A stretch of DNA of 64,000 nucleotides, from the NCBI GenBank assembly GCA_027459505.1, contig DAIDIE010000001.1, forward strand, positions 26,318-90,317. The letters run 5' to 3'. Source of the DNA: Acidobacteriota bacterium (lineage in GTDB: Bacteria; Acidobacteriota; Terriglobia; Terriglobales; SCQP01). A model generated the notes under the pieces. The model ran no database searches. It was not told the DNA's origin and worked only from the letters and a program-made list of their open reading frames with translations. The position numbers were made by a program, and so were the translations under genes. Shown piece by piece: positions 5,707 through 44,941 of this stretch (the first letter of the stretch is position 1; every line of letters starts with the position of its first letter).

Positions 5707-5886
5707 CGACACGCGGAGCGGCCGCGCCCTCTCGCCCACCCGGCGCCGCCGCTCCCGCTCCACCATACTCCCGCCTTCCGCTCTGAATTCGCTATAATCG
5801 CTGATACCTGAACAACTTTGCTTTGGCATCTCTGCGCCCTTCATTGCTGGGGCGGAGGCTGTCTCAGGCTCTCGGAATACGCATAC

Positions 5887-7958: not shown

Positions 7959-9017
7959 CTACCGCGAGGAGGCCAGGCGCCGCACCATTGCCGGCTCGCG
8001 CGAAAAATTCAAACCACTGCCGCACTCGTCGGCGTCCACCAACAACGTGTCATGCGGCTGCACCTGGGCGGTCGCCAGCAGATTGGCCAATGGGTGCACC
8101 AAGTGGCGCTCGATCGCTCGCTTCAAATGACGCGCTCCGTATTTCGGGTCAATCCCCTCCCGCAGCAACAAATCGCGCGCCGCCGGCGTGCAACGAAAAC
8201 TGAACACGCTTTGCAGCGATGACGCCTTCAGCAGCCGCTGCCGCACCTGCTCCAGCTCCAGCTCCAGGACTTGCTCCAATTGTTTGCGCTCCAGGGGATG
8301 GAACACCACCACATGGTCCAGACGGTTGAAAAACTCGGGAGAAAACTTCCGCCGCGCCGCCTCCGTCGCCGTACTCACCAGCCTGCTCTGCTCAATGGCC
8401 GCCCATGCCGGGGCAAATCCTAACCCCGGCTGCAGCACCCGTTGCATCTCGCTGGCGCCCAGGTTACTGGTCATGAAGATCATCGTCTGCATGAACGACA
8501 CCCGGCGGTTGTCCCCCAGCGTCAGCGTCGCCTTGTCCAGAATGCCCAGCAGGAGCTGCCACAGCGCATCACTGGCCTTCTCGATCTCGTCAAACAACAC
8601 CAGCGCCAGAGGAGTTTCTGGGGTCTGGTATTGGTTCAGTGCCTCCTGCGTCAGCACCGGGTGCGTCTCTCGATGCCCCAGGTAGCCCGGCGGCGAACCA
8701 ATCAGCTTGGCGATCTCATGACTGTGCTGGAATTCGCCACAGTCTACCTTAATGACCGCATTGGGCTGGTGAAACAGTGCCTCCGCCAGCGCTTCAACGA
8801 CGTGCGTCTTGCCCGTCCCGGTCGGGCCCAGAAACAGAAAATTGGCAATCGGCCGCTGTTGCGCCTGCAGCCCGGCCAAAAACATTTGATAGGCGTCAAC
8901 GATTGGCTCCAGCGCCGCCCGTTGCCCCACCACGCGCTCCTGCAGGTAGCCGAGCAGCCGCTCCGCCTGGCCCCCGCGCCGCTGTGGATTTAGTACGATT
9001 CGTGCCGCCGTCGCCAT
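7959..9017 (-). CDS. Stand-alone AAA+ ATPase resembling the ClpA/ClpB D2 module plus D2-small domain
   Basis: VVGQ..A...V, Walker A FLFLGPTGTGKTH, Walker B LVLFDEIEKA, GSPPGYLGH, and C-terminal ...GARHLKRAIERHL.... There is no N-domain and no D1 module; 352 aa. Confidence 0.8.
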   Translation of the reverse strand: MATAARIVLNPQRRGGQAERLLGYLQERVVGQRAALEPIVDAYQMFLAGLQAQQRPIANFLFLGPTGTGKTHVVEALAEALFHQPNAVIKVDCGEFQHSHEIAKLIGSPPGYLGHRETHPVLTQEALNQYQTPETPLALVLFDEIEKASDALWQLLLGILDKATLTLGDNRRVSFMQTMIFMTSNLGASEMQRVLQPGLGFAPAWAAIEQSRLVSTATEAARRKFSPEFFNRLDHVVVFHPLERKQLEQVLELELEQVRQRLLKASSLQSVFSFRCTPAARDLLLREGIDPKYGARHLKRAIERHLVHPLANLLATAQVQPHDTLLVDADECGSGLNFSREPAMVRRLASSR

Positions 9018-9265: not shown

Positions 9266-10585
9266 CTATGTCGCTGTCTGCCAGGCCTTGCTGGCTTGCA
9301 TTTGCCCCGCCCCGCTCGCCACTTTTTGTAACGCCTTCCCGTAAGCGTGCATCAGCTCCTCGCTCTGCGCGTAAATGGGGAACTCGTCGTTGGTTAGACA
9401 GAACGAGTTGGCGAACATCCGCAATGTCTCCGGATAATCCTCGGCGCGGTAGACGTACTGCGCGGGATCGCCGTTCAGGCTCCAGGGAACGTTGCGGCCC
9501 TGCCCATAATGCGATTGGATCATCGGATGCGCCGGCAACGGCGCCGTGCCCCACAGATCCACATCCACGCCCTCCGCGCTCAGCGCCGCCATGAAGGCGT
9601 CACGCAGCTCCTGGCCCCGCAATGGCGTGTCCAACTCCTCGGGCACGATTGTGATCCGGTACTTGTGGTACACCGATTCACACTCCTGCGGCACAAAAGG
9701 CGCGCGCAGTCCGGGCGTGTTCTGCAAATAGCTGTCCACAATACGGGCGTTTCGCTGCCCGGTACGGTTCACCTCCGCCAGCCGCGCAAGCTGCGTACGC
9801 GCCAGCGCGCACGGCATCTCCTGTACCCGGTAATTCCAGGCCAGCAGGTGCTGGAATTCCATCGTCCGGTTGCTGGCCGGCAGCGTCTCGCCCACCTGCT
9901 TGATCCAGTTGGCGCGATAGTAAACCTCTTCGTCGTTGGTCACCATGAAGCCGCCCTCGCCCACCGCGAAGTTCTTCGTGCCGTTGACGCTGAATCCCGC
10001 CGCCAGCCCCAGATTGCCCGCGCCCCGCCCTTTGTATTTCGCGCCCGGCGCCTGACAGGCATCTTCCAACACCAGCAACTTGTGCTTGCGCGCAACCGCG
10101 TGAATGGCGTCCCAGTCGGCGGTCAGGCCGTGAATATCGACGGCTAGGATGGCGCGCGTCCGCGGCGTAATCTTGGCCTCGATCTTCGCGGCATCGATGT
10201 TCCACGTGCGCGGATCGATATCGACAAAGACGGGGACCGCCCCGGCATGCAGAATGGCGGCGGGAGTGGCCAGAAACGAATAGGCCGAGGTAATCACCTC
10301 ATCGCCGGCCTGAACCCCCGCGGCCGCCACCGCCATGTGCAGCCCCGCCGTGCCACCGTTCACCGCCAGCGCATAGCGCGCCCCCAGAAAGGCCGCGAAC
10401 TCCCGCTCCAGCGCGTCCTGCTCGGGGCAGTGCAGGCCATCGACGGCCGTCATCGCCCACAAGACCTTCCGCTCCAGCACCCCCATCACGGCGCGCTTGT
10501 CCGCTTCGGTCACCACCGGCCAGCTTGTCTTCGCCAACTTCGCGGGAACGCTTTGCGCCCCCCCACGAATTGCCAGGTCACCCAT
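9266..10585 (-). CDS. DegT/DnrJ/EryC1/StrS family PLP-dependent aminotransferase
   Basis: ...FAAFLGARYALAVNGGTAGLHMAV..., ...GDEVITSAYSFLATP..., ...LVLEDACQAPGA..., and the PLP-lysine region FSVNGTKNFAVGEGG. ATG 10585 is preceded by GAGGAGAA. Confidence 0.9.
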   Translation of the reverse strand: MGDLAIRGGAQSVPAKLAKTSWPVVTEADKRAVMGVLERKVLWAMTAVDGLHCPEQDALEREFAAFLGARYALAVNGGTAGLHMAVAAAGVQAGDEVITSAYSFLATPAAILHAGAVPVFVDIDPRTWNIDAAKIEAKITPRTRAILAVDIHGLTADWDAIHAVARKHKLLVLEDACQAPGAKYKGRGAGNLGLAAGFSVNGTKNFAVGEGGFMVTNDEEVYYRANWIKQVGETLPASNRTMEFQHLLAWNYRVQEMPCALARTQLARLAEVNRTGQRNARIVDSYLQNTPGLRAPFVPQECESVYHKYRITIVPEELDTPLRGQELRDAFMAALSAEGVDVDLWGTAPLPAHPMIQSHYGQGRNVPWSLNGDPAQYVYRAEDYPETLRMFANSFCLTNDEFPIYAQSEELMHAYGKALQKVASGAGQMQASKAWQTAT

Positions 10586-10640
10586 GTCGCAGTTCTCCTC
10601 GTCTTCGCGCGGTCTGTGCCGCGGCTTTGCTCCGGTCCGC

Positions 10641-11981
10641 CTATTGTTCCCAGGCGTCGCGGCGCGCGTCGATCAGCCGCCGCAGCTTGCGTCCCGTGCT
10701 CAACGTGCGGGGCGCGTGATAGTGAAAGTCGAACTCAAAAAATCGCTTCTGGTAATAGCGCCAGCAATCCGGAAACCGCTCCTCGATATTGCGGAAAATA
10801 TGCTCCCGCACCTCGTCGGCGCCCGCCTCGGGCCGCAGTTCGAGATGAAACTCGATGCGATCGTCGCGGTCCCCCCGCCGCACGATCACCTGCCAGTCGT
10901 CCGTCACATCGTGGATGTCACGCAGGATCTCCTCGAACCAGTAGGGGCTGATGTTGCCCATTGAGCAATTGATGAGCTCGTCGGAACGGCCCGCGATACG
11001 CGCCACCCGCGGCATCAACTGCAAGCCGCATTGGCATTGCCCGTCTTGCGCCCAACGTGTTACATCCGCGGAGCGGTAGCGGATCAGCGGCATCACCTGG
11101 CGATTGAGCGTGGTGTAGGTGAGTTCGCCATAACCATCCTCATCGGGATCGGCGATCTCATTGACCAGATTCAGATCGTCGAGGTGATATCCGTGCTTTT
11201 CCGGGCACTCGATTCCGTTGGCCCCGAAGGCTTCCGTCTGCCCATAACTCAGCACCACCCGCGCCCCTTTCCAGACCGATTCGATGTAGCGCCGCGTCCG
11301 CTCGCTCAGGTTCTCTCCACCCAGCAAAAGCAGTTTTACCGGCCAGATCCCCTCTTTTTCCGCAACCTCGGTGACGCGAACAATATGTGTTGGCACGCCC
11401 ATAATCACCGTCGGGCGGTACACTTTCACGCGCTCGTAAAACTCCTTGGGCTCCACAAAGGCGCCGATCACGTGCAGGCAGCGCAGCGGAATCAGCGCGT
11501 AGTAGGCGGTGAACGGCGCGTTCCAGAAGGAATAGTCGAACCCGTCCGCTACCACATCCTCGCGGCGTACTCCCAGGTTATACAGTCCCGCCGCCGAATC
11601 GCGGCCATAATGCTGCATTTCCGCATAGGAGAAATAAACCCGCTTATTCACCCCCATCGAAGTGCCGGTCGTTTCAAAACCAAACTCCGGTGGCGCGCAT
11701 AAGAAGTCCTCCACCGGGTTGTTGCGCAGATCGGCCGCCGTCGTAAAAAAGTTCCCCAGGTCGGCGTGACTGTACACCTTGCGCGGATCGATGCCGAATT
11801 CCTTGAACTTCCGCTGATAAAACCGCGAATGCTTGGCCGCGTAGCGCACCGTGCGGTTCATCCCCTGCCGCTGTAAGCGGCGGATCAGCCCGGGTGTCAG
11901 GCGCTGGCCAAAGCGCAAGCGCCGCCCCGGCTGGTTCAACAGCCGTTCGTCAACAAACTTGATGAGGCGATGGATTGCCAT
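10641..11981 (-). CDS. PaaK / coenzyme F390 synthetase-like adenylate-forming enzyme
   Basis: ...FFTTAADLR..., FETTGTSMGVNKRVYFS, ...LLLGGENLSE..., ...LSYGQTEAFG... match the phenylacetate-CoA ligase-like family. ATG 11981 (GAGGAA upstream) is preferred over TTG 11999. Confidence 0.8.
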   Translation of the reverse strand: MAIHRLIKFVDERLLNQPGRRLRFGQRLTPGLIRRLQRQGMNRTVRYAAKHSRFYQRKFKEFGIDPRKVYSHADLGNFFTTAADLRNNPVEDFLCAPPEFGFETTGTSMGVNKRVYFSYAEMQHYGRDSAAGLYNLGVRREDVVADGFDYSFWNAPFTAYYALIPLRCLHVIGAFVEPKEFYERVKVYRPTVIMGVPTHIVRVTEVAEKEGIWPVKLLLLGGENLSERTRRYIESVWKGARVVLSYGQTEAFGANGIECPEKHGYHLDDLNLVNEIADPDEDGYGELTYTTLNRQVMPLIRYRSADVTRWAQDGQCQCGLQLMPRVARIAGRSDELINCSMGNISPYWFEEILRDIHDVTDDWQVIVRRGDRDDRIEFHLELRPEAGADEVREHIFRNIEERFPDCWRYYQKRFFEFDFHYHAPRTLSTGRKLRRLIDARRDAWEQ

Positions 11982-12064
11982 ACGTAACCGGTTCCTCAAC
12001 AGGGCTTCCGCCCCGCCTCTCGCTTCCCTCGCGTCGCTTCCTCCGCACGCCCTCCCCGCCGTGC

Positions 12065-13303
12065 TCAGCGCCCGGCCGCATTGCGCAGAATCAGCGACGA
12101 ATTCTGTCCCCCAAATCCAAATCCGTTACTCATTGCCACCCCGATGTGCGCCGCGCGCGCCTCTCCCGCCACCACATTCAGCAAACAGTCGGGGTCGGGA
12201 GTGCTGTAGTTCAGCGTTGGTGGAATAAAACTCTCCCGCATTGCCAACACCGTCAACACCGCCTCCACCGCCGAGGCGGCGGCGATCAGATGTCCGGTCA
12301 TGGCTTTGGTTGAACTCACCGGAACCCGCGCCGCGGCATCGCCCCACACCCGGCGCAAAGCTGCCGCCTCCGCCTGGTCGTTCAATACCGTGCCCGTGCC
12401 GTGCGCGTTGATGTAGTCGATCTCGCCCGGCCTCAGCCCGGCATCGTGCAAGGCCGCACCAATGGCCTGCGCCGCACCCCGCCCCTGCGGATGACACTTG
12501 GTCAGCCCAAAACAGTCCAACGAGCTGCCATAACCCGCCAGTTGCGCCAGCGGCCGCGCGCCCCGCGCTTCCGCGTGCCCCGCCTCTTCCAGCACGAAGG
12601 CGGCGGCTCCTTCGCCAACCACGAAACCGGTGCGATGACGGTCAAAGGGCCTGCAGGCCCGTTCCGGCCCTTCGTGCGCCAGCGCCGAAAGCAGTTCAAA
12701 TTCCAGCAAACTCAGCGGATCAATCTGGCTGTCGGTGGCGCCGGCAATGACCACCTCCGCCTGCCCCCGTTCAATAATGCGTTTGGCCATTCCCAACGCA
12801 TCGTTCCCAGAAGCGCAGGCGGTATAGCAGGAGTAGCGTGCGCCTCCAACCCCCGCCCGCTGCGCTAAGCCGCTCAGCAACTGCTGGGGCCGGGGGCGCT
12901 CCTCCGCGTTCACATACGCCTCCTGCGCGCGCGCCATCTGCTCCTCGATGACATCAGTCCCCCGCACGCCTGCCACCACCCGGCCCAGCATCTGCAGGTC
13001 CGTGGGGGGCTTGCCCACCGCCCACACCAGGGCGCGATCCTGCGCGGCATCCGCCGCCGGCAGTTGCGCCTCACTCAACGCCTCTTCCAGAACCTGCCGC
13101 GCCAGCGCTGCCATGCGCGGATTGCCACTGGGAAAGACGGCATCGGTAATTTCACCTGCGATCCGCACCGGAAAACCATCCACCGGAAACTGGCGTATCG
13201 CGCCAATGCCGTTGTGTCCCCGGCGCATCCGCTCGGCCGTTTGCCGCTGCCCCACTCCCAGCGCGGAAACCACACCCATTCCGGTAATGACCGCTCGCCT
13301 CAT
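12065..13303 (-). CDS. Beta-ketoacyl-ACP synthase (FabF/KS-alpha type, catalytic triad intact)
   Basis: MRRAVITGMGVVSALG..., active-site Cys in YTACASGNDALG, His in INAHGTGTVLND and KAMTGHLIAAAS, and C-terminal GFGFGGQNSSLIL. ATG 13303 overlaps the upstream stop (ATGA at 13300-13303). Confidence 0.9.
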   Translation of the reverse strand: MRRAVITGMGVVSALGVGQRQTAERMRRGHNGIGAIRQFPVDGFPVRIAGEITDAVFPSGNPRMAALARQVLEEALSEAQLPAADAAQDRALVWAVGKPPTDLQMLGRVVAGVRGTDVIEEQMARAQEAYVNAEERPRPQQLLSGLAQRAGVGGARYSCYTACASGNDALGMAKRIIERGQAEVVIAGATDSQIDPLSLLEFELLSALAHEGPERACRPFDRHRTGFVVGEGAAAFVLEEAGHAEARGARPLAQLAGYGSSLDCFGLTKCHPQGRGAAQAIGAALHDAGLRPGEIDYINAHGTGTVLNDQAEAAALRRVWGDAAARVPVSSTKAMTGHLIAAASAVEAVLTVLAMRESFIPPTLNYSTPDPDCLLNVVAGEARAAHIGVAMSNGFGFGGQNSSLILRNAAGR

Positions 13304-14205
13304 CGCGCGGCTACCTCGGCATAGGAAGCGGGCAGTATCTGTAGTCCAGCCCCCGCCGCCACTCCCTCGCTCCGTTGCGGATCGGCGCCGCTCAGCCTGT
13401 CCACTGCCTCGATCATGCTCAACAACCCGCCACTCGCCGGGCAACGCCGTAAAGGCTCCTCGTCGATTCGTGCCGCAACCACACCACCAGACGCCGCAGT
13501 CGCCCGCAGCAGCCCCACCACCGCCGCTCCTCGCGCCTTGGCACTGCTCCAGCGCTCCAAAACCAGAGCGCCAGCGGCCTCGCGGCTCGTCTCCGTTTCT
13601 ACGCCATAGGCGGGCGAGTCGCCGGCTTCACAGACCATGAGATCCGCCCGCCCTTCCACGATCGTCCAGTAACTTTCCGCCACCGCCTGCTGCGCCGCTT
13701 CCACGCCAGAGGTCATCGTGAAGCTCGGCCCTTGCAATCCGAACAGCAGCGACACATGCGCAGCCGCCATGTTGGCCAGAAGTGTTAAACGGCGGAAGGG
13801 ATGCAGCTTGTGCAACGCCACCTCCCCAAACCGGCTCAACTGCAACTCCCCGCCCCCAGCCTCCTCCAGCGTCTGCACCAGATCCGCTGTGATCGGGGAT
13901 ATGTCAGTGGTCGCCAGGGCCGTTCCCGCCCGGGTCACGTCGGCGTGGCTGGTTAGTTCAGCGGTCGAGCCCATCCCCGCTTGCCGCATGGCCAGCACCG
14001 CTGCCGCCGACGCCAACTGAAAGAGCCGCTGCATCGAGCGCAATACTTTGGGATTGTGTATGTAGGCGGCTGCGTCGAAATCGGGGACCGGCCGCCCGAC
14101 CTCCCCGGGATCACGCAACCAATTCCGCAGCGCCGCGGGGCCCACCCCCGCAGGCGTTAATACCCCAACGCCGGTGATGGCGACGATGCTGGCCTCACCT
14201 TCCAT
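13300..14205 (-). CDS. Truncated KS-like protein without catalytic residues (chain-length-factor-like partner)
   Basis: Thiolase-fold N-half (IVAITGVGVLTPAG...). The Cys position reads FTMTSGVEAAQQA, with no Cys. The His-containing C-half motifs are absent; 301 aa. The start follows the upstream stop directly (TAAATG), and the stop overlaps the next KS start. Confidence 0.7.
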   Translation of the reverse strand: MEGEASIVAITGVGVLTPAGVGPAALRNWLRDPGEVGRPVPDFDAAAYIHNPKVLRSMQRLFQLASAAAVLAMRQAGMGSTAELTSHADVTRAGTALATTDISPITADLVQTLEEAGGGELQLSRFGEVALHKLHPFRRLTLLANMAAAHVSLLFGLQGPSFTMTSGVEAAQQAVAESYWTIVEGRADLMVCEAGDSPAYGVETETSREAAGALVLERWSSAKARGAAVVGLLRATAASGGVVAARIDEEPLRRCPASGGLLSMIEAVDRLSGADPQRSEGVAAGAGLQILPASYAEVAAR

Positions 14206-14949
14206 TTAGCCCCGCATGCCTCCATCCACGTGCAGTACTTCGCCGGTGATGTAGTCAGCATCCGGGGAAACCAAAAAGGCGACCACTCCGGCGATCTCTT
14301 CCGGCTTGCCAAAACGGTTCAGCGTGATGAACGGCAGGATCTTATCCGCTGCCATCTCGCGGATATTCTGGCTCATGTCGGTCTCGATCATGCCCGGCGC
14401 CACGGCGTTCACGTTGATGTTGCGGCTGGCCAGTTCCGCCGCCAGCGCCCGCGTCATCGCATTGATGGCGCCTTTGGAGGCGGCATAGTTGGCGTGCCCG
14501 CGGTTGGGCTTATGCCCGGCCGCCGAAGAGAGATTCACAATCCGGCCCCAGCGCTGCCGCACCATCAGCTTGGCCGCCGCACGGCTGCAATAAAACACGG
14601 AGTCCAGATTGGTCTGCAGCACCGCCCGCCAGTCTTCCTCTTCCATGCTCAGCAGCAGCGTGTCGCGCGTAATGCCGGCGTTGTTGATCAGGATGTCAAG
14701 CCGCCCAAACTGGGTCTGCACCGCTTCAAACATCGCCTGCACTTGCGCGAGCTGCGAGACGTCGGCGGGAAAAATCTCCGCCTCACCCCCTTGGGCGCGA
14801 ATCTCATCGCGCACTTTTTCGGCGTCGGCCTGATGGCTGCGATAGTTGATCCCAACCCGGGCGCCATCCTGCGCCAGCCGCAAAGCAATGGCGCGGCCAA
14901 TCCCCCGGCTGGCGCCGGTGACTAATGCGGTTTTCCCTTTAAGACGCAT
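14206..14949 (-). CDS. 3-oxoacyl-ACP reductase (FabG-type SDR)
   Basis: TGASRGIGRAIA, NNAG, and S...YAASKGA...PG motifs; 247 aa; GAGGAAA RBS. Confidence 0.9.
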   Translation of the reverse strand: MRLKGKTALVTGASRGIGRAIALRLAQDGARVGINYRSHQADAEKVRDEIRAQGGEAEIFPADVSQLAQVQAMFEAVQTQFGRLDILINNAGITRDTLLLSMEEEDWRAVLQTNLDSVFYCSRAAAKLMVRQRWGRIVNLSSAAGHKPNRGHANYAASKGAINAMTRALAAELASRNINVNAVAPGMIETDMSQNIREMAADKILPFITLNRFGKPEEIAGVVAFLVSPDADYITGEVLHVDGGMRG

Positions 14950-14977
14950 AGCTTTCCTCGCGCTCGAAACGGCGCGC

Positions 14978-16291
14978 TCAGACGCTTTGGCTGATCACCA
15001 GCGAAGCGGTGTTGCCCACCGGACTGGCGGCGTTCACCAGCAGGTGGCGCAATGGACGCGCCGCCTGAGCTTCCAACACATAGGCCAAACCCAGGTCGGG
15101 ATCCGGCTGATTCAGATTTTTCACCGGCGGTAAACCAATGTGTCCGCCCACGCACCCCAATCCCGCAACCACCTCCAGCGGGGCCGAGCCCGCCAACAGG
15201 TTGCCGGTGAACGACTTGATCGCGGTCACTGGCACGTAGCTCGAGCGCGCCGTGAGCAGCGCCTTGATGGCCTGCGCCTCGACCGCGTCCGCGTGGCGTG
15301 CACCGCAGGCCTGGGCAAAGATGGCGTCCAATTCCCAGGGATCCAGCCGGGCATCCGCCAGCGCATTTTCCATCGCCGCCTGAAACGCCTGCTGCGTTTC
15401 CGCCGGACGCGGCCCCACCCCGCTGCTGGCCGCCGCGAAACCGCGAATTTCACCGTATATGCGAGCCCCGCGCGCCAGCGCCGCCTCTCGCTCCTCCATC
15501 ACCAAAAACGTTCCGCCCTCGGCGGGCACAAAGCCGGCGCGCTGCCGGTCAAAGGGACGGCTGGCGCCCGCCGCTTCACCCTCGCCGTCGTTGCCGCCCT
15601 GGTACAGCAAACCGGATGATTCAAAGCTCTCCAGCCGCTCTTCATCCAGCAGCGACTCGTAGCCTCCCGCCACCGCGATATCCGCCTTGCCTTGCCGCAC
15701 GGCCCGGAAAGCCTCGCCAATCGCGATCGCGCCCCCTGCTCCGCTCATGCAGATATTGGCGTTCAGCCCCTGCGCCCCCAGCTTCAGACTGACGAAGTAA
15801 AGCACGATGTTCGCCAGACTCTTCAGCAGCCACAACGGATTGATGGTGGAAATCCCCTCCGCGCCAAACAGCCGCAAATCCACCGGATCGCCGTTACGCA
15901 GCGCCACTTCCAGCGCTGGCAGCAGCTCGTCGCGATCCCCCGCATGTCCCGGCGACCCCACAAAGCAGGCAATCCGGAATGGGTCCACTCCCTCTAGATT
16001 GAGTTGCGCGCTCTTGACCGCCAGCTCCGCCGCCGCTACCCCAATGCGCACCGGGCGCGTCATCAGCTTCAGCGACTTGGGGTCGGCGATGAACTGGCGC
16101 GCGTTGAAATCTGGAATCGCACCGCCAAGGCGCGTGCGGAACGGCGCTACATCGAAGTGCGTTATCGCACGCAAACCACTGCGCCCCTCGCCCAATGCCG
16201 CCCACAACTGCTCGGCTGAACAGCCCAGCGGCGAGACCATGCCTATGCCGGTGATGACCACACGGCGTCCGGGTTCACGCGACGTATTCAC
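14978..16291 (-). CDS. KS-like protein lacking both catalytic histidines (KS-beta/CLF-like)
   Basis: RRVVITGIGMVSPLG thiolase-fold N-terminus. Aligned by eye to the upstream KS, INAHGT becomes IFAQAC and TGHMV becomes TGNLL. The Cys region reads NICMSGAGGAIAIGEA, and the Cys alignment is ambiguous. Start GTG 16291 (GGAG upstream) is chosen; the track gives TTG 16327. Either start overlaps the upstream KS stop at 16275. Confidence 0.8.
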   Translation of the reverse strand: MNTSREPGRRVVITGIGMVSPLGCSAEQLWAALGEGRSGLRAITHFDVAPFRTRLGGAIPDFNARQFIADPKSLKLMTRPVRIGVAAAELAVKSAQLNLEGVDPFRIACFVGSPGHAGDRDELLPALEVALRNGDPVDLRLFGAEGISTINPLWLLKSLANIVLYFVSLKLGAQGLNANICMSGAGGAIAIGEAFRAVRQGKADIAVAGGYESLLDEERLESFESSGLLYQGGNDGEGEAAGASRPFDRQRAGFVPAEGGTFLVMEEREAALARGARIYGEIRGFAAASSGVGPRPAETQQAFQAAMENALADARLDPWELDAIFAQACGARHADAVEAQAIKALLTARSSYVPVTAIKSFTGNLLAGSAPLEVVAGLGCVGGHIGLPPVKNLNQPDPDLGLAYVLEAQAARPLRHLLVNAASPVGNTASLVISQSV

Positions 16292-17576
16292 GAAATACCA
16301 AGCTCCCGTTGGATCCACCAAAACCAAACGAATTCGAAATCACCGTCCGCACCTTCGCCTGCCGCCCCACGTTGGGTACGTAGTCCAGATCGCAAACTGG
16401 GTCCGCCATCTCCTGGTTCAGGGTTGGCGGAATGTAACCTTCACCTATCACCAGCAGTGAAATCAATGCCTCAATCGCTCCGGCCGCGTTCACCATATGC
16501 CCCGTCATCGACTTGGTCGAGCTGATGGGGACCTTCCTGGCGTACTCGCCCAGACAGCGCTTGATGGCCATGGTTTCGCTGGCGTCGTTCTGCACGGTCG
16601 AGGTCCCGTGGGCGTTGATGTAGTCCACCTCGCTGGGAGCGATCCCCGCGTCTTCCAACGCCGCATTCATGGCCAACAGCGGCCCTTGTCCGTCCGGAGG
16701 CGAGTCGGTTATGCGATATGCGTTAATGGAGCAGCCAAAACCGGCAATCTCGCCGTAAATGCGCGCTCCCCTCCGGTAGGCGTGCCAGGCGTCTTCCAGC
16801 ACCAGCATGGCCGCGCCTTCCGCCAGCACAAAGCCGTCGCGCGCCCCGTCAAAGGGACGCGATGCCGCCTTGGGATTGTCGTTGCGCTTGGAGAGCGCGC
16901 CCAGCAGGATAAAGCTGGACACCATGGTCGGCTCCATCAGGCTCTCCGCTCCCCCCGCCAGCATGATGTCCGCGTCGCCGCTGCGAATCTTCTCCACCGC
17001 GAATCCCACCGCCTGCGAGCTGGACGTGCACGCGGTTGAGATCGTGTTCATCGGGCCCCGCGCCCCAATCAGCGAACTGAGCGCGTAAACCAGAGCGTAG
17101 GGCGCATAGCGCAGGTATTCGTAACCGGGAATCGCCGCCAGCGCCGCGCGCCGCTCCGCTTCCGTCCGCGCCCGCAACTTGCGGGCCGCTAACTCCGGCA
17201 ATAGGCAATCGCGCCGCCCCTCCGTACCCATCGACACGCCAATGCGGCTGCCATCCACGCTGGCGTCGCCCAGCTTCAGACCCGCGTCGCCCAGCGCTTC
17301 CAGCGCCGCCGCGTAGCCAAACGTGTTCTTGCGGTCCAGCACGTCCTGAATTTCCGCCGGCGCCTTGCCCTGCACCTTCTCCAGATCAAAGCCGCGTACC
17401 TCGCCGGCAATGCGCGTCTCGAAGGTTGAGGCGTCAAACAGCGAAATCGTGTCGATCCCGCAACGGCGCTCCTTCAGCCCTTGCCAGGTTTCGGCGGCAT
17501 TATGCCCAATCGGCGTCACCGCCCCCAGCCCGGTCACCACCACTCGCCTGCCTTTATTTGGACCGTGCGACTTCAT
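16275..17576 (-). CDS. Beta-ketoacyl-ACP synthase II-like (catalytic triad intact)
   Basis: RRVVVTGLGAVTPIG, active site TACTSSSQAVG, INAHGTSTVQND, KSMTGHMVNAAG, SNSFGFGGSNGSLVF. The ATG overlaps the dehydratase stop (ATGA at 17573-17576). Confidence 0.9.
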   Translation of the reverse strand: MKSHGPNKGRRVVVTGLGAVTPIGHNAAETWQGLKERRCGIDTISLFDASTFETRIAGEVRGFDLEKVQGKAPAEIQDVLDRKNTFGYAAALEALGDAGLKLGDASVDGSRIGVSMGTEGRRDCLLPELAARKLRARTEAERRAALAAIPGYEYLRYAPYALVYALSSLIGARGPMNTISTACTSSSQAVGFAVEKIRSGDADIMLAGGAESLMEPTMVSSFILLGALSKRNDNPKAASRPFDGARDGFVLAEGAAMLVLEDAWHAYRRGARIYGEIAGFGCSINAYRITDSPPDGQGPLLAMNAALEDAGIAPSEVDYINAHGTSTVQNDASETMAIKRCLGEYARKVPISSTKSMTGHMVNAAGAIEALISLLVIGEGYIPPTLNQEMADPVCDLDYVPNVGRQAKVRTVISNSFGFGGSNGSLVFREYVA

Positions 17577-18100
17577 TCCGCTCCCGTTCCCTTTCCCTTG
17601 CCCAGCGCCTGCAGCCGCGGCCAGTGCTCGCGCAGCAGCGCCCGGTTCACGTTCTCCGCCCAGCGCTCCAGATCCTGCCGCGCCGACTCCGGAATCACGT
17701 TGTCTCCCCCGCTCTGATATCCCAGCGTCACCTCGGCCGTGGTCATCGTCTGGCCATCGACTTGCGCCGTCCCCTTACAACGGCCCGCGCCATCGGTCAT
17801 CGCCGTCAACTCCACTCGCACCACCACGGTGTCGCCCGGTCGCACAAAACGCCGGAATTTGGCGTTACTCACACCCAGCAGCACCGGCAGTACCACCTCG
17901 CCCGTCTCCGCCCGCACCGTGTACGTGATCAGCCGCCCGGCCAATTGCGCCATCGCTTCCACCAGCAGCACGCCGGGAACCACCGGAAATCCGGGAAAAT
18001 GGTCGGCAAAATAGTCCTCCGCCATCGCCGGGTTTTTTACGCCCACGGCGTGACTGCCCGGCTCCAGCTCGGTGATTTTGTCGATCAGAATGAATCGCAC
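17573..18100 (-). CDS. FabZ-like hot-dog 3-hydroxyacyl-ACP dehydratase with a C-terminal extension
   Basis: GTG 18100 is preceded by AAGGGG. The product VRFILIDKITELEPG...ADHFPGFPVVPGVLLVEAMAQLAG carries the FabZ catalytic His/Glu motif. About 45 extra C-terminal residues follow. The ORF-track start at 18304 is over-extended. Confidence 0.85.
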   Translation of the reverse strand: MRFILIDKITELEPGSHAVGVKNPAMAEDYFADHFPGFPVVPGVLLVEAMAQLAGRLITYTVRAETGEVVLPVLLGVSNAKFRRFVRPGDTVVVRVELTAMTDGAGRCKGTAQVDGQTMTTAEVTLGYQSGGDNVIPESARQDLERWAENVNRALLREHWPRLQALGKGKGTGAE

Positions 18101-18239
18101 GTTCCCCTTGGCCCTTTCCCGCTGTTGGCCAGCCCCTCTGCAACGCAATGCCTGCCCGCTCACTATCCCGCCAACTTCAGGCACACTTCGACTGCGGAGC
18201 CGCCATGTGCCCCTGTGCATCCACCGCTTGGCGACCAGT

Positions 18240-18728
18240 TCAGCTTCCCGCGCTGGTGCTCGCTCCGCCCGTCTCCCCCAACCGCCACGCCACCAGCCGG
18301 GCAAACGTTTCGGGAGTGAACAGCGTCGGAATCTCGCGCGCCGGCAAGCCGGTATGGAATTTCGCCGGGTCCACTTCGGGCATCAGTATGCGCAGACGCT
18401 CCAGGGCGGCTTCGGTCAGAATGCCGTTCTGCTGAAACTCGGCGTCGCTCAACGATCCCTGCGTCGCCTTCTGAATGCCACCGCGCGGAATCTTGATTCC
18501 GAATTCCGATTCCAACTGGAACAGCAGATCCAGAAAATCGAGCGACTCGGCGCCCAGATCCTTCATCAGGCTGGAGTTGGCCTGCACCTCATCCTCGTCC
18601 TTGCCCAGCACGCTGGCCACCGCTTTGCGCACCGTGGTCAGAATCTCGTCGTGACGAGTGGCCAGCACACTGTCGGCGGCCTTGCGGATATGCAGTACCT
18701 CTTCGGAGCTCTTGCTCACTTCAGTCAT
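18240..18728 (-). CDS. Acyl carrier protein with an internal insertion (162 aa)
   Basis: GGAGG RBS. Phosphopantetheine-attachment motif LGAESLDFLDLLFQLESEFGIKIP. About 50 residues are inserted before a helix-IV-like TPETFARLVAWRL. Confidence 0.8.
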   Translation of the reverse strand: MTEVSKSSEEVLHIRKAADSVLATRHDEILTTVRKAVASVLGKDEDEVQANSSLMKDLGAESLDFLDLLFQLESEFGIKIPRGGIQKATQGSLSDAEFQQNGILTEAALERLRILMPEVDPAKFHTGLPAREIPTLFTPETFARLVAWRLGETGGASTSAGS

Positions 18729-18792
18729 CTCGTAGCCTCCGCGGCGCCACCCTCTGCGGCGCCGGAATTGAATTTCTTGCCGCGCTGATGCC

Positions 18793-19557
18793 TCAGCGCA
18801 CGCTCATCAGCGACAGACCGCCATCGGCGATGATGGTCTGTCCGTAAATCCAGTGGGCCGCGTCGGAACACAGAAACGCGACTACGTCGCAGACGTCGTC
18901 CGGCGTCCCGATCCGCCCGGCGGGAGAGTACTCCTCGCACGCCTTTTTCATCTGCTCAAACGTGGAAAACAGCTTCAGCGCGTCGGTCTCTATCGGACCC
19001 GCCGAAAGCGTGTTCACGTTGATGCCCAGCCTCCCCAACTCCACGCCCAGATAGCGGGTCAATGCCTCGGTCGCCGCCTTGGTCACGCCAATCGCGGCGT
19101 AGCCCGGTATATAGTGCTGCGAACCCAGACTCGACAGGCTCACGATCTTGCCCTTGCGGTCCTTCATCAGCGGCACGCAACGCTGCGCGCTGTACAGCAG
19201 CGCGTTGGTGTTGCCGTTCAACGTGTGTTCCCAACCGTCTTTCCTGGTGCGTAGCAGTGGACCAAACGCGGCCACATCAATGGCGTTGTTAATGAAAATG
19301 TCGAGGTGGCCAAATTGCGCCTTCACAAAGTCAAAAAGCTTCGTGATCCCCTCGCTGCTGATGGCGTCGGCTTCGACAATCTCCGCGCGCCGCCCTTTGC
19401 CGCGAATCTCCTCCGCCAGCGCCTTGGCCCGGTCTTCGCTGGTCACGTAATTGATGACCACGTCCGCGCCGTGATCCGCCAGGCGCAGCGCGATCGCCCG
19501 CCCGATTCCCCGGGCCGCGCCGGTCACCAGCGCTACCCTGCCTTGCAAGTCAATCAC
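18793..19557 (-). CDS. FabL-type enoyl-ACP reductase (SDR)
   Basis: GTG 19557 with GAGGAG upstream. VTGAARGIGRAIA, SLSSLGSQHYIPGYAAIGVTKAATEALTRYLGVEL, GPIETDALKLF and GQTIIADGG closely parallel B. subtilis FabL (compared from memory). Confidence 0.8.
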   Translation of the reverse strand: MIDLQGRVALVTGAARGIGRAIALRLADHGADVVINYVTSEDRAKALAEEIRGKGRRAEIVEADAISSEGITKLFDFVKAQFGHLDIFINNAIDVAAFGPLLRTRKDGWEHTLNGNTNALLYSAQRCVPLMKDRKGKIVSLSSLGSQHYIPGYAAIGVTKAATEALTRYLGVELGRLGINVNTLSAGPIETDALKLFSTFEQMKKACEEYSPAGRIGTPDDVCDVVAFLCSDAAHWIYGQTIIADGGLSLMSVR

Positions 19558-19788
19558 ACACGTCTCCTCTGTCCGCCAGACGACCGGCGAACCCAGATGG
19601 CGTTTCCACTGGCCGATGGAGCAGGGCCGGCGCACCCGGAAGGGAGGCCCGGCCGCTTTTCATCCCGCACTAGCCCTTCGGTACAGGCACACGGGCAACC
19701 CAACAAGCTCCCTGTTGGTAAACTCCCGCCACTGCCCTACCGCGGCCCGCACCCTTGCAAACCGAACCGCTGTTCCCAGCGGTCCGCT

Positions 19789-21099
19789 TTACACCACCGC
19801 CTTGACCCGCAACTGCTGCGCCAGGCGATGAAGCGTCTGCTCCAGTCTCTGGAACTGCAGGCTCAGGTCATGCTGCGGCTGGCCGGCGCTTACCTGCGGG
19901 CTCTTGAAGAAAAAGCCCAGCCACTCCTGCACGCCGCTTTCTCCCGCGCGTTGGGCCGCATAGCTCAACAGCGCCAGATCCAGCAGCAGGGGGGCGGCCA
20001 AAATACTGTCTCGGCACAAGAAGTTTACCTTGATCTGCATCTGGTAGCCCAGCCACCCGATCAGGTCAATCGTGTCCCAGCTCTCCTTGTTGTCGCCCCG
20101 CGGGGGATAATAGTTGATTTTCACCTGGTGCGACACGTTGCCGTACAGCTCCGGATAGGTCCCCGCGTCCAGAATCTGGTTCAGTACCGACAGCTTCGAC
20201 TCTTCCTTACTGCGGAAAGCCGCCGGATCGTCCAGCACCGCCCCATCCTGATTGCCCAGAATATTCATCGAAAACCAGCCCGACAGACCCAGCATCCGCT
20301 GCTTGATCCCCGGCGCCAGAATCGTCTTCAACAGCGTCTGCCCGGTCTTCAGATCCTTGCCGCTGATCACGCAGCCCTTCGCCTTGGCCAGATCGATCAT
20401 CACCGGCAGATCAACCGTCAGCGTGGGCGTCGCGTTCACAAACGAACAGCCCTCCTGCAGCGCCGCGTAGGCGTAAACCATGCTGGGCGCAATGCTGGGA
20501 TCGTTCTCGCGCAGCGCCGTCTCGAATATCTTCAGGCCTTGATGCGCCGGTCCGGGGGTAAGAAAAACCTCCGTGGAACCGCACCACATCACAACCACAT
20601 CCTGCAGTCCGTTGCGGCGGCGAAACTCGCGAATGTCGGCACGCAGCGCCTCCGCCTGCTCCATCTTATTGGTCTCCGGCTTCAGCTTGCGGCCTTCCGT
20701 GCGGCGCAGGAAGCGGGGATCGTGAATGCCGGGCATCGGCTGAATCTTCTCCAGCGCCGGCCGCAACTGCTCCAGCAGTCCACGGTCCAGAACCGCCGCG
20801 CGCACCGCCGATTCATAGCAGTTGCCCCCCGAAATGTCCCATCCCCCAAATACCAGTTGATCCAGTTGCGGCAACCGCAGGTAGGTCGCGAGCGGCACCT
20901 TTTGTCCCGGATCTTCCGCGTCGTCGATCTGCATCAACTGCGTGATCGCCCCAAAGGGACGCGCCAGCCCGCTCTTAACCGCTTCCACTCCCGCGATCAG
21001 CGTGGTCGCAATTGAGCCCATTCCGGCCAATAAAATTCCCACCCGGGCGTTCTCAGACTCCGCCTGGGACTTGTCCTGCCAACGTAGAGGTTCTGTCAT
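19789..21099 (-). CDS. ino1: myo-inositol-1-phosphate synthase (inositol-3-phosphate synthase)
   Basis: ARVGILLAGMGSIATTLIAG (NAD site), ...VVVMWCGSTE..., ...SGKDLKTGQTLLKT..., ...NILGNQDG..., ...KESWDTIDL... are typical of the bacterial/archaeal MIPS family. ATG 21099 with a GGAGAG RBS. Confidence 0.9.
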   Translation of the reverse strand: MTEPLRWQDKSQAESENARVGILLAGMGSIATTLIAGVEAVKSGLARPFGAITQLMQIDDAEDPGQKVPLATYLRLPQLDQLVFGGWDISGGNCYESAVRAAVLDRGLLEQLRPALEKIQPMPGIHDPRFLRRTEGRKLKPETNKMEQAEALRADIREFRRRNGLQDVVVMWCGSTEVFLTPGPAHQGLKIFETALRENDPSIAPSMVYAYAALQEGCSFVNATPTLTVDLPVMIDLAKAKGCVISGKDLKTGQTLLKTILAPGIKQRMLGLSGWFSMNILGNQDGAVLDDPAAFRSKEESKLSVLNQILDAGTYPELYGNVSHQVKINYYPPRGDNKESWDTIDLIGWLGYQMQIKVNFLCRDSILAAPLLLDLALLSYAAQRAGESGVQEWLGFFFKSPQVSAGQPQHDLSLQFQRLEQTLHRLAQQLRVKAVV

Positions 21100-21269
21100 G
21101 GATCTCTCCCAACAGCAGCATTGTGGGGAGCCGCCTATTAACCGGGGGTTAAATGAGGATTAAAGACTTTAAACGATTCCTGTGCGAAGCAACACTTGCA
21201 TGCCCCCATCAACCGGCCTCCGCCGCTCCGCCTACTCTGCCCCTCACCAGCCACCGGCATGTCCAACGG

Positions 21270-21390
21270 ATTTGGAACTCAAAATCGCACGCCAAGCGAC
21301 TCTCAAATCCAGCGTTGCATCCCACCCCGCGCCGCGCGGCACCGCAACCGGCGCCGAAACGAGTGGAATAAAAGCGAAGTTTGCCGCAGG
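21270..21390. repeat. Dispersed intergenic repeat, family E2 (degenerate copy)
   Basis: Shares ...TCGAAATCGCA-like, CCAC(G)CCGCGCCGCGCGGC and G(G)TGGAATAAAAGCG blocks with 60985-61170 and partly with 25255-25292. Confidence 0.6.
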
Positions 21391-21392
21391 TG

Positions 21393-21446
21393 GAGCTCGC
21401 GCGGAATTGGGCCGGCTCGCGCGGAATTGGGCCGGCTCGCGTGGAA
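21393..21446. repeat. Tandem 20-bp repeat (about 2.6 copies)
   Basis: GCGGAATTGGGCCGGCTCGC occurs at 21401-21420 and again perfectly at 21421-21440. It is flanked by partial units (GAGCTCGC before, GTGGAA after). Confidence 0.85.
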
Positions 21447-21550
21447 AGAGCACCCGGCATGGGCGGCTTCTGGGTCTCACCGGAGAACGCGAGCCGCTAT
21501 TCCGGCAACGCCGGCGAAGGCCTCAAGAGACGAGACCGTGCCCCCTCCGG
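21436..21550. repeat. Dispersed intergenic repeat, family E1
   Basis: CTCGCGTGGAAAGAGCACCCGGCATGGGCGGCTTC...TCTCACCGGAGAACG...CTCAAGAGACGAGACCGTGCC parallels 61930-62050 block by block. Confidence 0.65.
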
Positions 21551-21659
21551 CATTGGGCCAGGGCACAGCGACTGCTGCTGCCGCCGAAAGACACGGGCTA
21601 CTCGCGTGAGCCGGCTCTCGCCTGGCGCTAAACCACATCTTTAACAACAACCGTGTGAA

Positions 21660-22145
21660 CTACCTACCACCTTGCTGCGGCTCCAGTGCATTCAGCGCCG
21701 CCTGATAGGCATCCCGATGCGTCATCTCGTCCCTGCGAATCTCTGCAAAACGGCTCGCCGCCGCCTGATCCCCTAACGCCGCCGCTTGCTTGGCAAAGCG
21801 GGGATACATGGTGTTAACTTCATACGTCTCGCCTTTGATCGCGTCCCGCAGGTTGTCCGCGTCGCTTCCCACCAGTCCGGAAAGCTGTGCCTCCTCGGCG
21901 AAATGCTGAAAGCGCTCCGTGTGTGCCGTCTGCGCGAATAGCCTCGCCAGACGCGGGTCACCTGACTGGCGGGCATGTTGCGCGTACAACATGTACTTGG
22001 CGAAGGCAAACGCTTCGCCATGCATCGCCGTGGACAAATTATCAATCGTCTGCTGATGGAGTGCGGCTCGCCGCGCCGTTGTGCTTCCAATCGTGAATGC
22101 CACAGCCGCCACCACCACCAGCGCCATACTCCATAACACCTTCAT
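21660..22145 (-). CDS. Rubrerythrin/ferritin-like di-iron protein with signal peptide
   Basis: MKVLWSMALVVVAAVAFTIG, then paired E...ExxH motifs (GEAFAFAKY, TERFQH, GETYE, RRDEMTH). No rubredoxin domain. Confidence 0.75.
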   Translation of the reverse strand: MKVLWSMALVVVAAVAFTIGSTTARRAALHQQTIDNLSTAMHGEAFAFAKYMLYAQHARQSGDPRLARLFAQTAHTERFQHFAEEAQLSGLVGSDADNLRDAIKGETYEVNTMYPRFAKQAAALGDQAAASRFAEIRRDEMTHRDAYQAALNALEPQQGGR

Positions 22146-24028: not shown

Positions 24029-24112
24029 TCCCTGGCCATCCCCCTGGATCGAGCAAACCCGCGCCTTCGCCTGCCGCTGTTTATACTGGAACACGGGACA
24101 AAGGGCGCGCAC

Positions 24113-25168
24113 ATGAGTGATTCCGAAGCGGTTTGGGAGCGCTACTCGCGGCAGATTCTATTTACGCCTTTTGGCCGCCGCGGCCAGCAGCGCCTGCGCG
24201 CCGCTCATGTCGCCATCGTCGGCTGTGGCGCTTTGGGCAGCGCCCAAGCCCTGCTGCTCACCCGCGCCGGCGTTGGCCGCCTCACCCTTATCGACCGCGA
24301 CTTTGTCGAACCCAGCAATCTGCAGCGCCAGAACCTGTTTGACGAGCAGGACGCCGCCGAAGGCCGCCCCAAAGCCACCGCCGCCGCCACTCACCTGACC
24401 TGCATGAATCGCGAGGTGGCTCTCAACCCGGTCATTGCGGATTTGACCCCGGCCAATATCCATCAGCTCCTCGCACCCGCTGACATCGTCCTGGACGGCT
24501 GCGACAACTTCGAGACTCGCTACCTGATCAACGACTGGTCCATCGAGCAGGCGCGCCCCTGGATTTACGGCGCCGTGGTGGGAGCCTATGGCGTGACCTT
24601 GAACGTGCTGCCCGGTGGCCCCTGCCTGGAGTGCGTGCTGGGCGCAATGCCCACCGCTCCCCAGGCCACCTGCGATACCGCCGGGGTGTTGAACTGGGTC
24701 GTTAACCTCGTCGCCTCACTGCAGGTTGGCGAGGCTGTCAAGTACATCGCCGCCAACGCCACCGGCGCTCCCCCGGAAGAGAGCGGCCTCAGTACCCTCC
24801 GCAATACCATTTGGGCGGCTGACGTTTGGGTGAACCACTTTCAGCAGGTGCCCTTACCCGATCGCGATCCGCAATGCCGCGCCTGCGCGCAACGCGACTT
24901 CGTCCATCTCCGCGCCGAACTCCGCCCCCACATAACCCTCTGCGGCCGCGACTCGGTGCAAATACACGAGCAGCACCGCCAACTCGACCTTTCCCGTCTC
25001 CACCAACTCCTCGCCTCCCAGGGCCGCGTCCGCTCCACGGCCATGATGCTGAAGTTCTGGACCGGACCCTACGAGCTCACCGTCTTCAGCGATGGTCGCG
25101 CCATCGTCAAAGGCACCACCGAGCCCTCGGTCGCCCGCTCGCTGTACGCCCGCTACATCAGCGCCTAG
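24113..25168 (+). CDS. ThiF/MoeB/HesA family adenylyltransferase (E1-like)
   Basis: YSRQILF, VAIVGCGALGSAQALLLTRAGVGRLTLIDRDFVEPSNLQRQ, CDNFETRYLIND, CxxC pairs (CLEC, CRAC), and a C-terminal ...FSDGRAIVKGT...ARSLYARYI domain like the long ThiF/MoeB forms. Confidence 0.85.
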   Translation: MSDSEAVWERYSRQILFTPFGRRGQQRLRAAHVAIVGCGALGSAQALLLTRAGVGRLTLIDRDFVEPSNLQRQNLFDEQDAAEGRPKATAAATHLTCMNREVALNPVIADLTPANIHQLLAPADIVLDGCDNFETRYLINDWSIEQARPWIYGAVVGAYGVTLNVLPGGPCLECVLGAMPTAPQATCDTAGVLNWVVNLVASLQVGEAVKYIAANATGAPPEESGLSTLRNTIWAADVWVNHFQQVPLPDRDPQCRACAQRDFVHLRAELRPHITLCGRDSVQIHEQHRQLDLSRLHQLLASQGRVRSTAMMLKFWTGPYELTVFSDGRAIVKGTTEPSVARSLYARYISA

Positions 25169-25292: not shown

Positions 25293-25330
25293 AATTACAC
25301 CAGCCTTCTCCCTTGTGGCACCATTACCCT

Positions 25331-44936: not shown

Positions 44937-44941
44937 GACGC

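Follow-up and report, generated by a model that had tools for sequence, protein, structure and literature searches.

Comparison with described systems

Inosamines, as in streptomycin, hygromycin A and rhizopine, are formed by a textbook route which combines a myo-inositol-1-phosphate / inositol-3-phosphate synthase (MIPS), a phosphatase, an inositol/inosose dehydrogenase and a DegT/StrS-type aminotransferase, and in hygromycin A the inosamine is amide-bonded to an acid extended on an acyl carrier protein (ACP) by enzymes resembling those of fatty acid synthesis. The present analysis deals with an 11-gene cassette in which a MIPS and a DegT/StrS-family aminotransferase lie together with a reducing type II synthase containing two FabF-like ketosynthases (KSs). 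It occupies positions 9266-21099, on the minus strand, of a 64,000-nt stretch of DNA (hereafter, the window; 61-67% G+C) from a member of the Terriglobales (Acidobacteriota; GenBank assembly GCA_027459505.1, contig DAIDIE010000001.1). The cassette probably combines two known kinds of system, a reducing synthase of type II and an aminocyclitol pathway, and would yield a new product. Our preferred, if tentative, reading is that the operon would be an accessory biosynthetic system for a specialised lipid with an inositol-derived head group, its product being an N-acyl aminocyclitol. The genes, and the ATPase gene that follows them, are:

19789-21099, minus strand: MIPS, 436 aa, first gene of the operon
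18793-19557, minus strand: FabL-type enoyl-ACP reductase (ER), a short-chain dehydrogenase/reductase (SDR), about 254 aa; the longest open reading frame (ORF) extends to 19635
18240-18728, minus strand: dedicated long ACP, 162 aa
17573-18100, minus strand: FabZ/ApeI-like 3-hydroxyacyl-ACP dehydratase (DH), 175 aa, GTG start at 18100
16275-17576, minus strand: KS1, catalytically complete FabF-like ketosynthase, 433 aa
14978-16327, minus strand: KS-like partner 1, resembling a chain-length factor (CLF), at most 449 aa; candidate starts at 16327, 16291 and 16261
14206-14949, minus strand: FabG-type 3-oxoacyl-ACP reductase (ketoreductase, KR), 247 aa
13300-14205, minus strand: truncated KS-like partner 2, 301 aa
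12065-13303, minus strand: KS2, catalytically complete FabF-like ketosynthase, 412 aa
10641-11981, minus strand: PaaK/F390-synthetase-type adenylate-forming enzyme (hereafter, the ligase), 446 aa
9266-10585, minus strand: DegT/DnrJ/EryC1/StrS-family pyridoxal-phosphate (PLP) aminotransferase (DegT), 439 aa, last core gene
7959-9017, minus strand: stand-alone ClpB-D2-like AAA+ ATPase, 352 aa, 248 nt downstream of DegT, a possible accessory gene

As for the aminocyclitol pathways, the likeness lies in the MIPS and the DegT/StrS-family aminotransferase, to which rearranged relatives of the cassette, described below, add a phosphatase and a Zn-dehydrogenase. The acid would here, however, come from a type II synthase with a full reducing cycle and two pairs of KSs, and no glycosyltransferases are present; the dehydrogenase of the relatives is of the IolM type and not of the Gfo/Idh/MocA type, and the producers would be Acidobacteria and Betaproteobacteria-like metagenome-assembled genomes (MAGs) instead of actinomycetes.

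With the highly reducing type II systems of ishigamide (Iga11-Iga12), aryl polyenes (ApeO-ApeC) and ladderanes (amxFabF2-amxFabFmut), the cassette shares a FabF-like KS with an adjacent inactive partner, discrete KR and DH, a dedicated ACP, an ApeI-like DH and, for its truncated partner, a fold like that of short CLFs. It differs from them by its two KS pairs per operon, its FabL-type ER, the insertion in its long ACP and the linked MIPS and DegT genes. In contrast to aryl polyene and flexirubin clusters, it possesses an ER, one ACP and one DH instead of two each, and neither LolA/MMPL nor acyltransferase genes. The ladderane cluster has a pair made of an intact FabF2 and a mutated FabF, amxFabFmut (preprint 10.64898/2026.05.19.726425). 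This pairing is alike in the cassette, which nevertheless has no radical SAM gene and is hosted by Terriglobales rather than anammox bacteria; two KS chains of about 412 aa from a single PDB entry (9S5H_B and 9S5H_C), which may be the ladderane pair, score below ordinary FabF. Aromatic type II polyketide synthases (PKSs) are set apart by the absence of cyclase, aromatase and oxygenase from the cassette, by its full KR/DH/ER set and by its KSs, whose best matches are FabF and not the actinorhodin KS.

Cispentacin biosynthesis starts with loading of the ACP by an adenylate-forming enzyme, continues with a KS/CLF-like heterodimer and then FabI, and proceeds to an aminotransferase acting on the ACP-bound ketone (PMC10698177). 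Like the cassette, this cispentacin/coronafacic-acid system (AmcB-AmcH) is a small operon coding for an ACP and an adenylate-forming enzyme, a KS/CLF-like heterodimer, a FabZ-like protein and an aminotransferase, with an enoyl reduction step; by contrast, its aminotransferase belongs to class III, its chain undergoes one elongation and a cyclisation, its FabI is borrowed and it has no MIPS. Concerning the Fic25/DADH-type systems, Fic25 is the closest solved relative of DegT, aligned over the full length including the C-terminal region, but the cassette has no LysW-like carrier, transketolase or other DADH gene, and its carrier is an ACP.

As a whole, no described pathway, cluster or lipid matching the cassette was found among the NCBIfam curated models or in the literature searched, including a 2026 aminocyclitol review, in agreement with an annotation made earlier from the sequence alone (hereafter, the first-pass annotation), which could not match it either. 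FabD, FabH, PlsX and Acc subunits, the neighbours expected of housekeeping fab genes, are absent from the cassette and were not detected among the remaining ORFs of the window, of which most of the larger ones were scanned. The first-pass annotation had also seen no thioesterase or acyltransferase in the window, and neither these nor FabD and FabH were detected among the ORFs scanned. Of KS1, KS2, ACP and KR, only KR reaches the curated score of a fab equivalog.

Organisation of the operon

ORF calling gave 11 consecutive minus-strand ORFs between 9266 and 21099, and every expected domain was found with Pfam and NCBIfam, so that the co-directional set and all its assignments, as first annotated, are retained. 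The junctions are also those reported at first, with one correction: the gap between MIPS and ER is about 231 nt, and not 153 nt. ER and ACP are separated by 64 nt, and ACP and DH by 139 nt when the GTG at 18100 is taken as the DH start; DH and KS1 overlap by ATGA, KS1 overlaps KS-like partner 1, and the latter is followed by KR after 28 nt. KR and the truncated KS-like gene meet at TAAATG, the truncated KS-like gene and KS2 overlap by ATGA, and the remaining gaps are 83 nt (KS2 to ligase) and 55 nt (ligase to DegT). The ligase start used here, ATG at 11981, agrees with an identical database protein of 446 aa (P0065). For ER, the most likely start is predicted to be the GTG at 19557 rather than 19635, because of a GAGGAG motif upstream and the fit to 255-aa orthologues. 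In all, two starts in the cassette had to be revised. No RNA element was found by Rfam inside or upstream of the operon, and scans for sigma-70 promoters and terminators remained at background level.

Conservation among the Terriglobales

The truncated KS-like protein was used as a marker to scan one genome per species for 185,579 species, with a sensitivity limited to two peptide patterns. Eighteen loci were obtained, all from Terriglobales/Acidobacteria MAGs and none from a cultured strain. All loci of sufficient length share one gene order (MIPS-ER-ACP-DH-KS1-KSlike-KR-tKSlike-KS2-AMP-DegT, AMP being the ligase), MIPS being the first cassette gene in 13 relatives, while protein identities between the window and these relatives range from 45 to 80%. 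The catalytic motifs of ER, KR, ACP and DegT are conserved in 20-25 orthologues. Apart from the AAA+ gene, the flanks of the window and of its relatives are unrelated. This recurrence of the 11-gene order between unrelated flanks is far more than chance would give, and the genes are not scattered in any complete locus, a point which the first-pass annotation had proposed to check. Because the order is constant, the flanks differ and no cultured strain was matched, the genes would form an accessory cassette rather than a housekeeping type II fatty acid synthase (FAS-II); that distinction, already drawn at first, also agrees with KS1, KS2 and ACP scores below the FabF and AcpP cut-offs and with the lack of fabD and fabH among the ORFs scanned.

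Most relatives carry a twelfth gene beside MIPS, coding for a ligase paralogue (AMP2; 44-49% identity), which is usually co-directional but divergent in locus L005. The window has no AMP2, and in the 560-nt gene-free stretch upstream of MIPS (21100-21660) neither an AMP2 remnant (tblastn) nor an RNA motif (Rfam) was found. Compared with the single ligase present in the second cluster type (described below), the paralogues show equal distances, so that the duplication is lineage-specific. As for the AAA+ protein, it carries AAA_2 and ClpB_D2-small domains and equals a ClpB D2 module. Its gene is the only flanking gene of the window common to relatives: in L012, L016, L019 and L021 it lies downstream of DegT at a distance of 0.2-0.8 kb, in L015 at about 3.9 kb, and in L043 it is present although the cassette is not.

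Ketosynthase family proteins

The two intact KSs and their two partners were aligned with their orthologues. KS1 carries both KS domains (Pfam) and scores 444.5 bits on the FabF equivalog of NCBIfam, KS2 scoring 367.6 bits, both under the cut-off of 493.75; the Cys-His-His triad and the Lys are all retained in both proteins. KS-like partner 1 also shows both KS domains, with weaker matches. Its Cys is replaced by Gly, its second His by Asn in all four orthologues examined, and its first His by Gln here, the latter position being variable among orthologues. The active-site alignment therefore agrees with the first reading of KS1 and KS2 as intact and of this partner as lacking both His.

The truncated KS-like protein matches only PF00109 (1.2e-11), i.e. 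the N-terminal KS domain, and is devoid of the Cys, of the His/Lys region and of the whole C-terminal half. About 41 homologues are known, almost all of 285-340 aa, and each named one comes from a Terriglobales MAG; across 21 sequences, the length is kept and 42 columns are invariant. AlphaFold predicts a compact KS fold (pLDDT 86.6), whose best size-normalised structural match is 6SMP_F, a 348-residue chain of the AntDE:AntF type II PKS complex (TMq 0.65). A pseudogene was considered and rejected on account of this conserved length, of the 42 invariant residues and of the confident fold prediction. In the rearranged cluster described below, the counterpart is a full-length protein of 403 aa which keeps both His but lacks the Cys and the Lys; the truncated form is, on this comparison, a lineage-specific shortening of a full-length second CLF-like partner.

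Each intact FabF-like KS gene overlaps the gene of an inactive KS-like partner, KS1 with KS-like partner 1 and KS2 with the truncated one. The KS/CLF-like logic recognised in the first-pass annotation is thus maintained, and the two pairs would act as heterodimers.

Reducing cycle and acyl carrier protein

A complete KR/DH/ER reducing cycle, served by a dedicated 162-aa ACP, is encoded by the cassette. KR scores 310.5 bits on TIGR01830, above its cut-off of 297.75, as compared with 273.5 bits on the flexirubin FlxB model (cut-off 340), and its classical Tyr-x3-Lys motif is kept in about 25 orthologues. DH matches PF07977 (8e-22) and reaches about 114 bits on FabZ models, for one of them right at the cut-off; its orthologues carry the ApeI-like PF22818, and the catalytic DHFPGFPVVPG...E (His/Glu) is conserved among them.

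For ER, FabL is the top NCBIfam model (282.5 bits) and B. subtilis FabL (3OIC) the best PDB match, with 200.8 bits vs. 145 for FabG, the next one. The Ser...Tyr-x6-Lys motif, whose spacing is typical of enoyl-ACP reductases, is kept in 25 orthologues, and the FabL-like assignment proposed at first is confirmed by this motif and by the match to 3OIC. A role of ER as the missing inositol dehydrogenase was also considered and rejected, since ER has the Y-x6-K motif and matches FabL with 55 bits more than any other SDR. With a dedicated ER of the FabL type, a saturated chain would be expected rather than a polyene.

The match of the ACP to PP-binding (Pfam) is confined to residues 32-82, and the protein falls under every ACP cut-off of NCBIfam (acpP, 51.6 bits vs. 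70.45). Its Ser lies within AESLDFLDL, and an insertion of about 50 aa precedes the last helix; the Ser motif and a C-terminal IPxLFTPETFxRLVAW are conserved in 20 orthologues. At E<=1e-10, a search among 1.84 billion representatives matched 369 clusters; in the top 150, the proteins are mostly 130-170 aa long and the alignments usually pass through the insertion. By these matches, the long ACP is a member of a broad and unnamed family. One relative of 135 aa was found in L057 (JGI 3300069939), inside another orphan cassette which codes for an ApeI-like DH, two successive KSs, KR, nitroreductase, cysteine-desulfurase/rhodanese, ACP, SDR, two Zn-ribbon radical-SAM proteins, a FabA-like protein and a methyltransferase. 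Because a long-ACP relative sits in this cassette, the DH-KS-KS-KR core looks like a reusable module.

MIPS, aminotransferase and ligase

MIPS matches PF07994 (7e-82) and PF01658 (1.5e-31), and its best PDB match is the inositol-3-phosphate synthase 7NWR (437 bits, residues 11-426); it is, by these criteria, a genuine MIPS, predicted to convert glucose-6-phosphate into inositol phosphate. DegT belongs to PF01041 (2.4e-83), and its PLP lysine, in NGTKNF, is kept in 22 orthologues. Further matches (NCBIfam, PDB) are to perosamine synthase, ArnB and sugar-nucleotide aminotransferases of the PseC type.

The ligase possesses AMP-binding and AMP-binding_C_2 domains, with the motifs TTGT(S/T), YGQTE, GRxDE and the Lys of a C-terminal GRKLRRL conserved. 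None of its scores reaches an NCBIfam cut-off: the best match is the DVU_1553 family (147.9 bits, cut-off 300), followed by the PaaK models (117-118 bits, cut-offs 646-700) and FlxY (109.6 vs. 520), and no paa catabolic genes lie beside it. Its best PDB match is the PaaK-type 4R1L (129 bits). Among the weaker ones are NatL2 and AjiA1, both labelled as PaaK-like ligases in the PDB table, which we take to be enzymes forming amide or ester bonds directly.

Remote homologues of the ligase (45-46% identity) were found in L055 (Blastocatellia-like, JGI 3300005529) and L056, within triads made of a HAD phosphatase, a class III aminotransferase and the ligase. One of these triads is extended by a metallo-beta-lactamase-fold (MBL-fold) hydrolase, two KSs, FabA, a radical SAM protein, an MGDG-synthase-like glycosyltransferase and an ABC transporter, and the other by a phosphoenolpyruvate mutase/nucleotidyltransferase and a CDP-alcohol phosphatidyltransferase. 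The triads point to a putative recurring amine-plus-ligase head-group module, and the adjoining phosphatase and aminotransferase fit a ligase that would use an amine made next door.

A rearranged cluster in other soil MAGs

A second tier of ligase homologues (51-55% identity) revealed a rearranged cluster in soil MAGs, one of them labelled Betaproteobacteria. In L022, L024, L025, L032 and L037, an orthologue of every cassette protein of the window was found, with 33-58% identity: 56% for MIPS, 58% for ER, 52% for the long ACP, 44% for DH, 55% for KS1, 44% for KS-like partner 1, 52% for KR, 46% for KS2, 57% for DegT and 53% for the ligase. The cassette is thus seen as part of a wider family which, judging from these orthologues, reaches MAGs outside the Acidobacteria.

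The rearranged cluster adds four genes: an MBL-fold hydrolase between ACP and DH, a B12-type radical SAM after KS2, and a Zn-dehydrogenase and an inositol-monophosphatase-family protein (IMPase), both following the ligase and DegT with translational coupling. In L022 and L024, the ligase, DegT, dehydrogenase and IMPase genes form one tightly coupled operon, divergent from MIPS, in which the DegT gene overlaps that of the dehydrogenase, itself followed by IMPase. The L022 dehydrogenase scores 485 bits on the IolM (scyllo-inosose 3-dehydrogenase) model, above its cut-off of 450, and the best match of the L022 IMPase is inositol-1-monophosphatase (197 bits). IMPase is tied to the cluster in three different arrangements. 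The presence in this cluster of the whole inosamine set (MIPS, phosphatase, dehydrogenase and DegT) is the strongest clue to the role DegT may play: because it is coupled to the IolM-type dehydrogenase and IMPase in the rearranged cluster, DegT is best explained as making an aminocyclitol together with MIPS.

Concerning the radical SAM protein of about 545 aa, it always follows KS2 (L022, L024, L025, L026-L028, L034, L035, L037 and L039) and, in the metagenome scan, marks the end of the rearranged cluster. Only weak matches to the PhpK, BchE, ladderane-B12, HpnR and HpnJ models were obtained, with 61 bits vs. a cut-off of 360 for TIGR04072 (rSAM_ladder_B12). Homologues whose N-terminal 96 aa or so are 68-77% identical are also present in L041-L053, without any cluster gene.

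Proposed pathway and alternative explanations

In the pathway proposed, MIPS would convert glucose-6-phosphate into inositol phosphate, which would be dephosphorylated by an IMPase and oxidised to inosose by an IolM-type Zn-dehydrogenase, both encoded outside the window, and DegT would then transaminate the inosose to inosamine. Meanwhile, the two KS/CLF-type heterodimers, acting for example in early vs. late elongation, would build a largely saturated chain on the long ACP, with complete reduction by KR, DH and ER; malonyl loading and phosphopantetheinylation would be borrowed from primary metabolism. Finally, an N-acyl aminocyclitol lipid would result from the joining of chain carboxylate and amine by the PaaK-like ligase, which may alternatively load the chain or a starter onto the ACP. 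The first-pass annotation had related the adenylating enzyme and the aminotransferase to starter loading, amide formation and an amino function; the amino function is kept, and would be placed on an aminocyclitol head group rather than on the chain.

Several observations weigh against this proposal. An amide ligase would require the acid in free form, and the cassette encodes no thioesterase that could release it; IMPase and the dehydrogenase are absent from the window and from the other Terriglobales loci within 10 kb, the MBL-fold hydrolase is confined to the rearranged type, and the 282.5 bits of ER are below the curated FabL cut-off of 328. In addition, the best PDB match of DegT is Fic25 (8GYH, 252.9 bits, full-length alignment), ahead of a Gln:scyllo-inositol transaminase (7B0D, 188 bits), even though this excess is explained by a shared C-terminal region. 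Fic25 transaminates a ketone bound to a carrier protein (PMC11726168), and the main rival explanation, unlikely in our opinion but deserving consideration, is accordingly a route to an amino fatty acid. The ligase would load a starter on the long ACP, the KS pairs would extend it, and DegT would transaminate an ACP-bound keto intermediate (e.g. a 3-oxoacyl one), inositol or its phosphate being attached by an ester or phosphodiester or used otherwise. Such a route has a full precedent in cispentacin (PMC10698177) and would suit a cassette devoid of thioesterase. On the other hand, the DegT-IolM overlap and the IMPase of the rearranged cluster would have no place in an amination of the chain, AmcC belongs to class III and not to the DegT family, and the NCBIfam scores remain low (AmcF, 219.6 vs. 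325; AmcB, 24 vs. 80; AmcE, 48.9 vs. 140).

It is improbable that the genes are only loosely associated, i.e. that the fatty-acid-synthase-like genes provide an unusual acyl chain, for instance for an inositol phospholipid or an acyl-inositol, while DegT and the ligase belong to some other pathway, concerned with sugars or the cell envelope. MIPS alone would suffice for inositol lipids, and the sugar-nucleotide aminotransferases resembling DegT (perosamine synthase, ArnB, PseC type) speak in the same sense, but the 11 genes keep their order and linkage over the 45-80% identity range and are still linked after rearrangement, and the cassette encodes neither a nucleotidyltransferase nor a 4,6-dehydratase, a glycosyltransferase or a CDP-alcohol phosphatidyltransferase. 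Very improbable, finally, is a member of a characterised type II family (aryl polyene/flexirubin, ladderane or aromatic PKS) or a second housekeeping FAS-II. The ApeI-like PF22818 of the DH orthologues, the 273.5 bits of KR on FlxB, the weak FlxY match of the ligase, the intact and mutated FabF heterodimer also seen in the ladderane cluster and the KR score above the FabG cut-off would all be expected from it; an ER, a single ACP and a single DH in a cassette with no exporter, acyltransferase, cyclase or aromatase would not, nor would FlxB, FlxY and rSAM_ladder_B12 scores below cut-off, KS1 and KS2 below FabF, an ACP far below acpP, the missing fabD/fabH/plsX neighbours and the finding of the cassette in only 18 species genomes, none of them cultured.

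Going beyond the N-acyl aminocyclitol reading, and with still more caution, the cassette and its rearranged relatives might specify an unrecognised class of bacterial lipids, in which a saturated and possibly further modified acyl chain is amide-linked to an inositol-derived aminocyclitol. A dedicated type II synthase with two KS/CLF pairs would build the chain in the producing organisms, which would be soil Terriglobales and Betaproteobacteria-like bacteria not yet in culture, and the long-ACP/DH-KS-KSL-KR core (KSL being KS-like) would be reusable across the head-group and tailoring sets of different lineages. If so, abundant uncultured soil Acidobacteria would make a cyclitol-headed aminolipid left unassigned in lipidomic surveys, and a new enzymatic logic would emerge, in which a PaaK-like ligase works with an amine derived from MIPS and with a reducing type II synthase containing two KS/CLF pairs. 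The truncated KS-like protein and the long ACP would then provide a genetic marker for such lipids in metagenomes. With its 11-12 genes, the cassette is tractable for heterologous expression.

Other features of the window

Upstream of the cassette, the plus-strand genes at 22451-28149 code for an ankyrin-repeat protein (525 aa), followed by a ThiF-family protein, an acyl-CoA carboxyltransferase and an FAD oxidoreductase; they are not conserved beside the cassette in relatives. On its other side, a deoxyhypusine-synthase-family protein (1727-2926, plus strand; PF01916, 2.5e-83) is followed downstream by genes for a CAAX/M48 peptidase and a LacI-type regulator. Between the latter and the AAA+ gene, a plus-strand ORF of 678 aa (5818-7854) competes with a minus-strand ORF of 457 aa (6295-7668), with no Pfam match.

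Another B12-binding radical SAM gene (44981-46486) is located in the minus-strand region 43486-46486, where it overlaps an ATP-grasp/L-amino-acid-ligase-type gene (43662-44993), a tRNA-Glu(CTC) gene (43486-43562) lying downstream of this pair. It was rejected as an orthologue of the cluster-linked radical SAM, to which it is only 22% identical, and would therefore belong to a separate small unit.

A bacterial RNase P RNA of class A (270.9 bits) was found at 61219-61668 on the minus strand, and the high-GC3 ORF at 61186-61908 (plus strand) is considered spurious because it overlaps this RNA. A copper-handling set at 29857-33383 on the plus strand codes for a heavy-metal P-type ATPase bearing an HMA domain, together with a cupredoxin-like protein and a metal-sensing repressor of the CsoR type.

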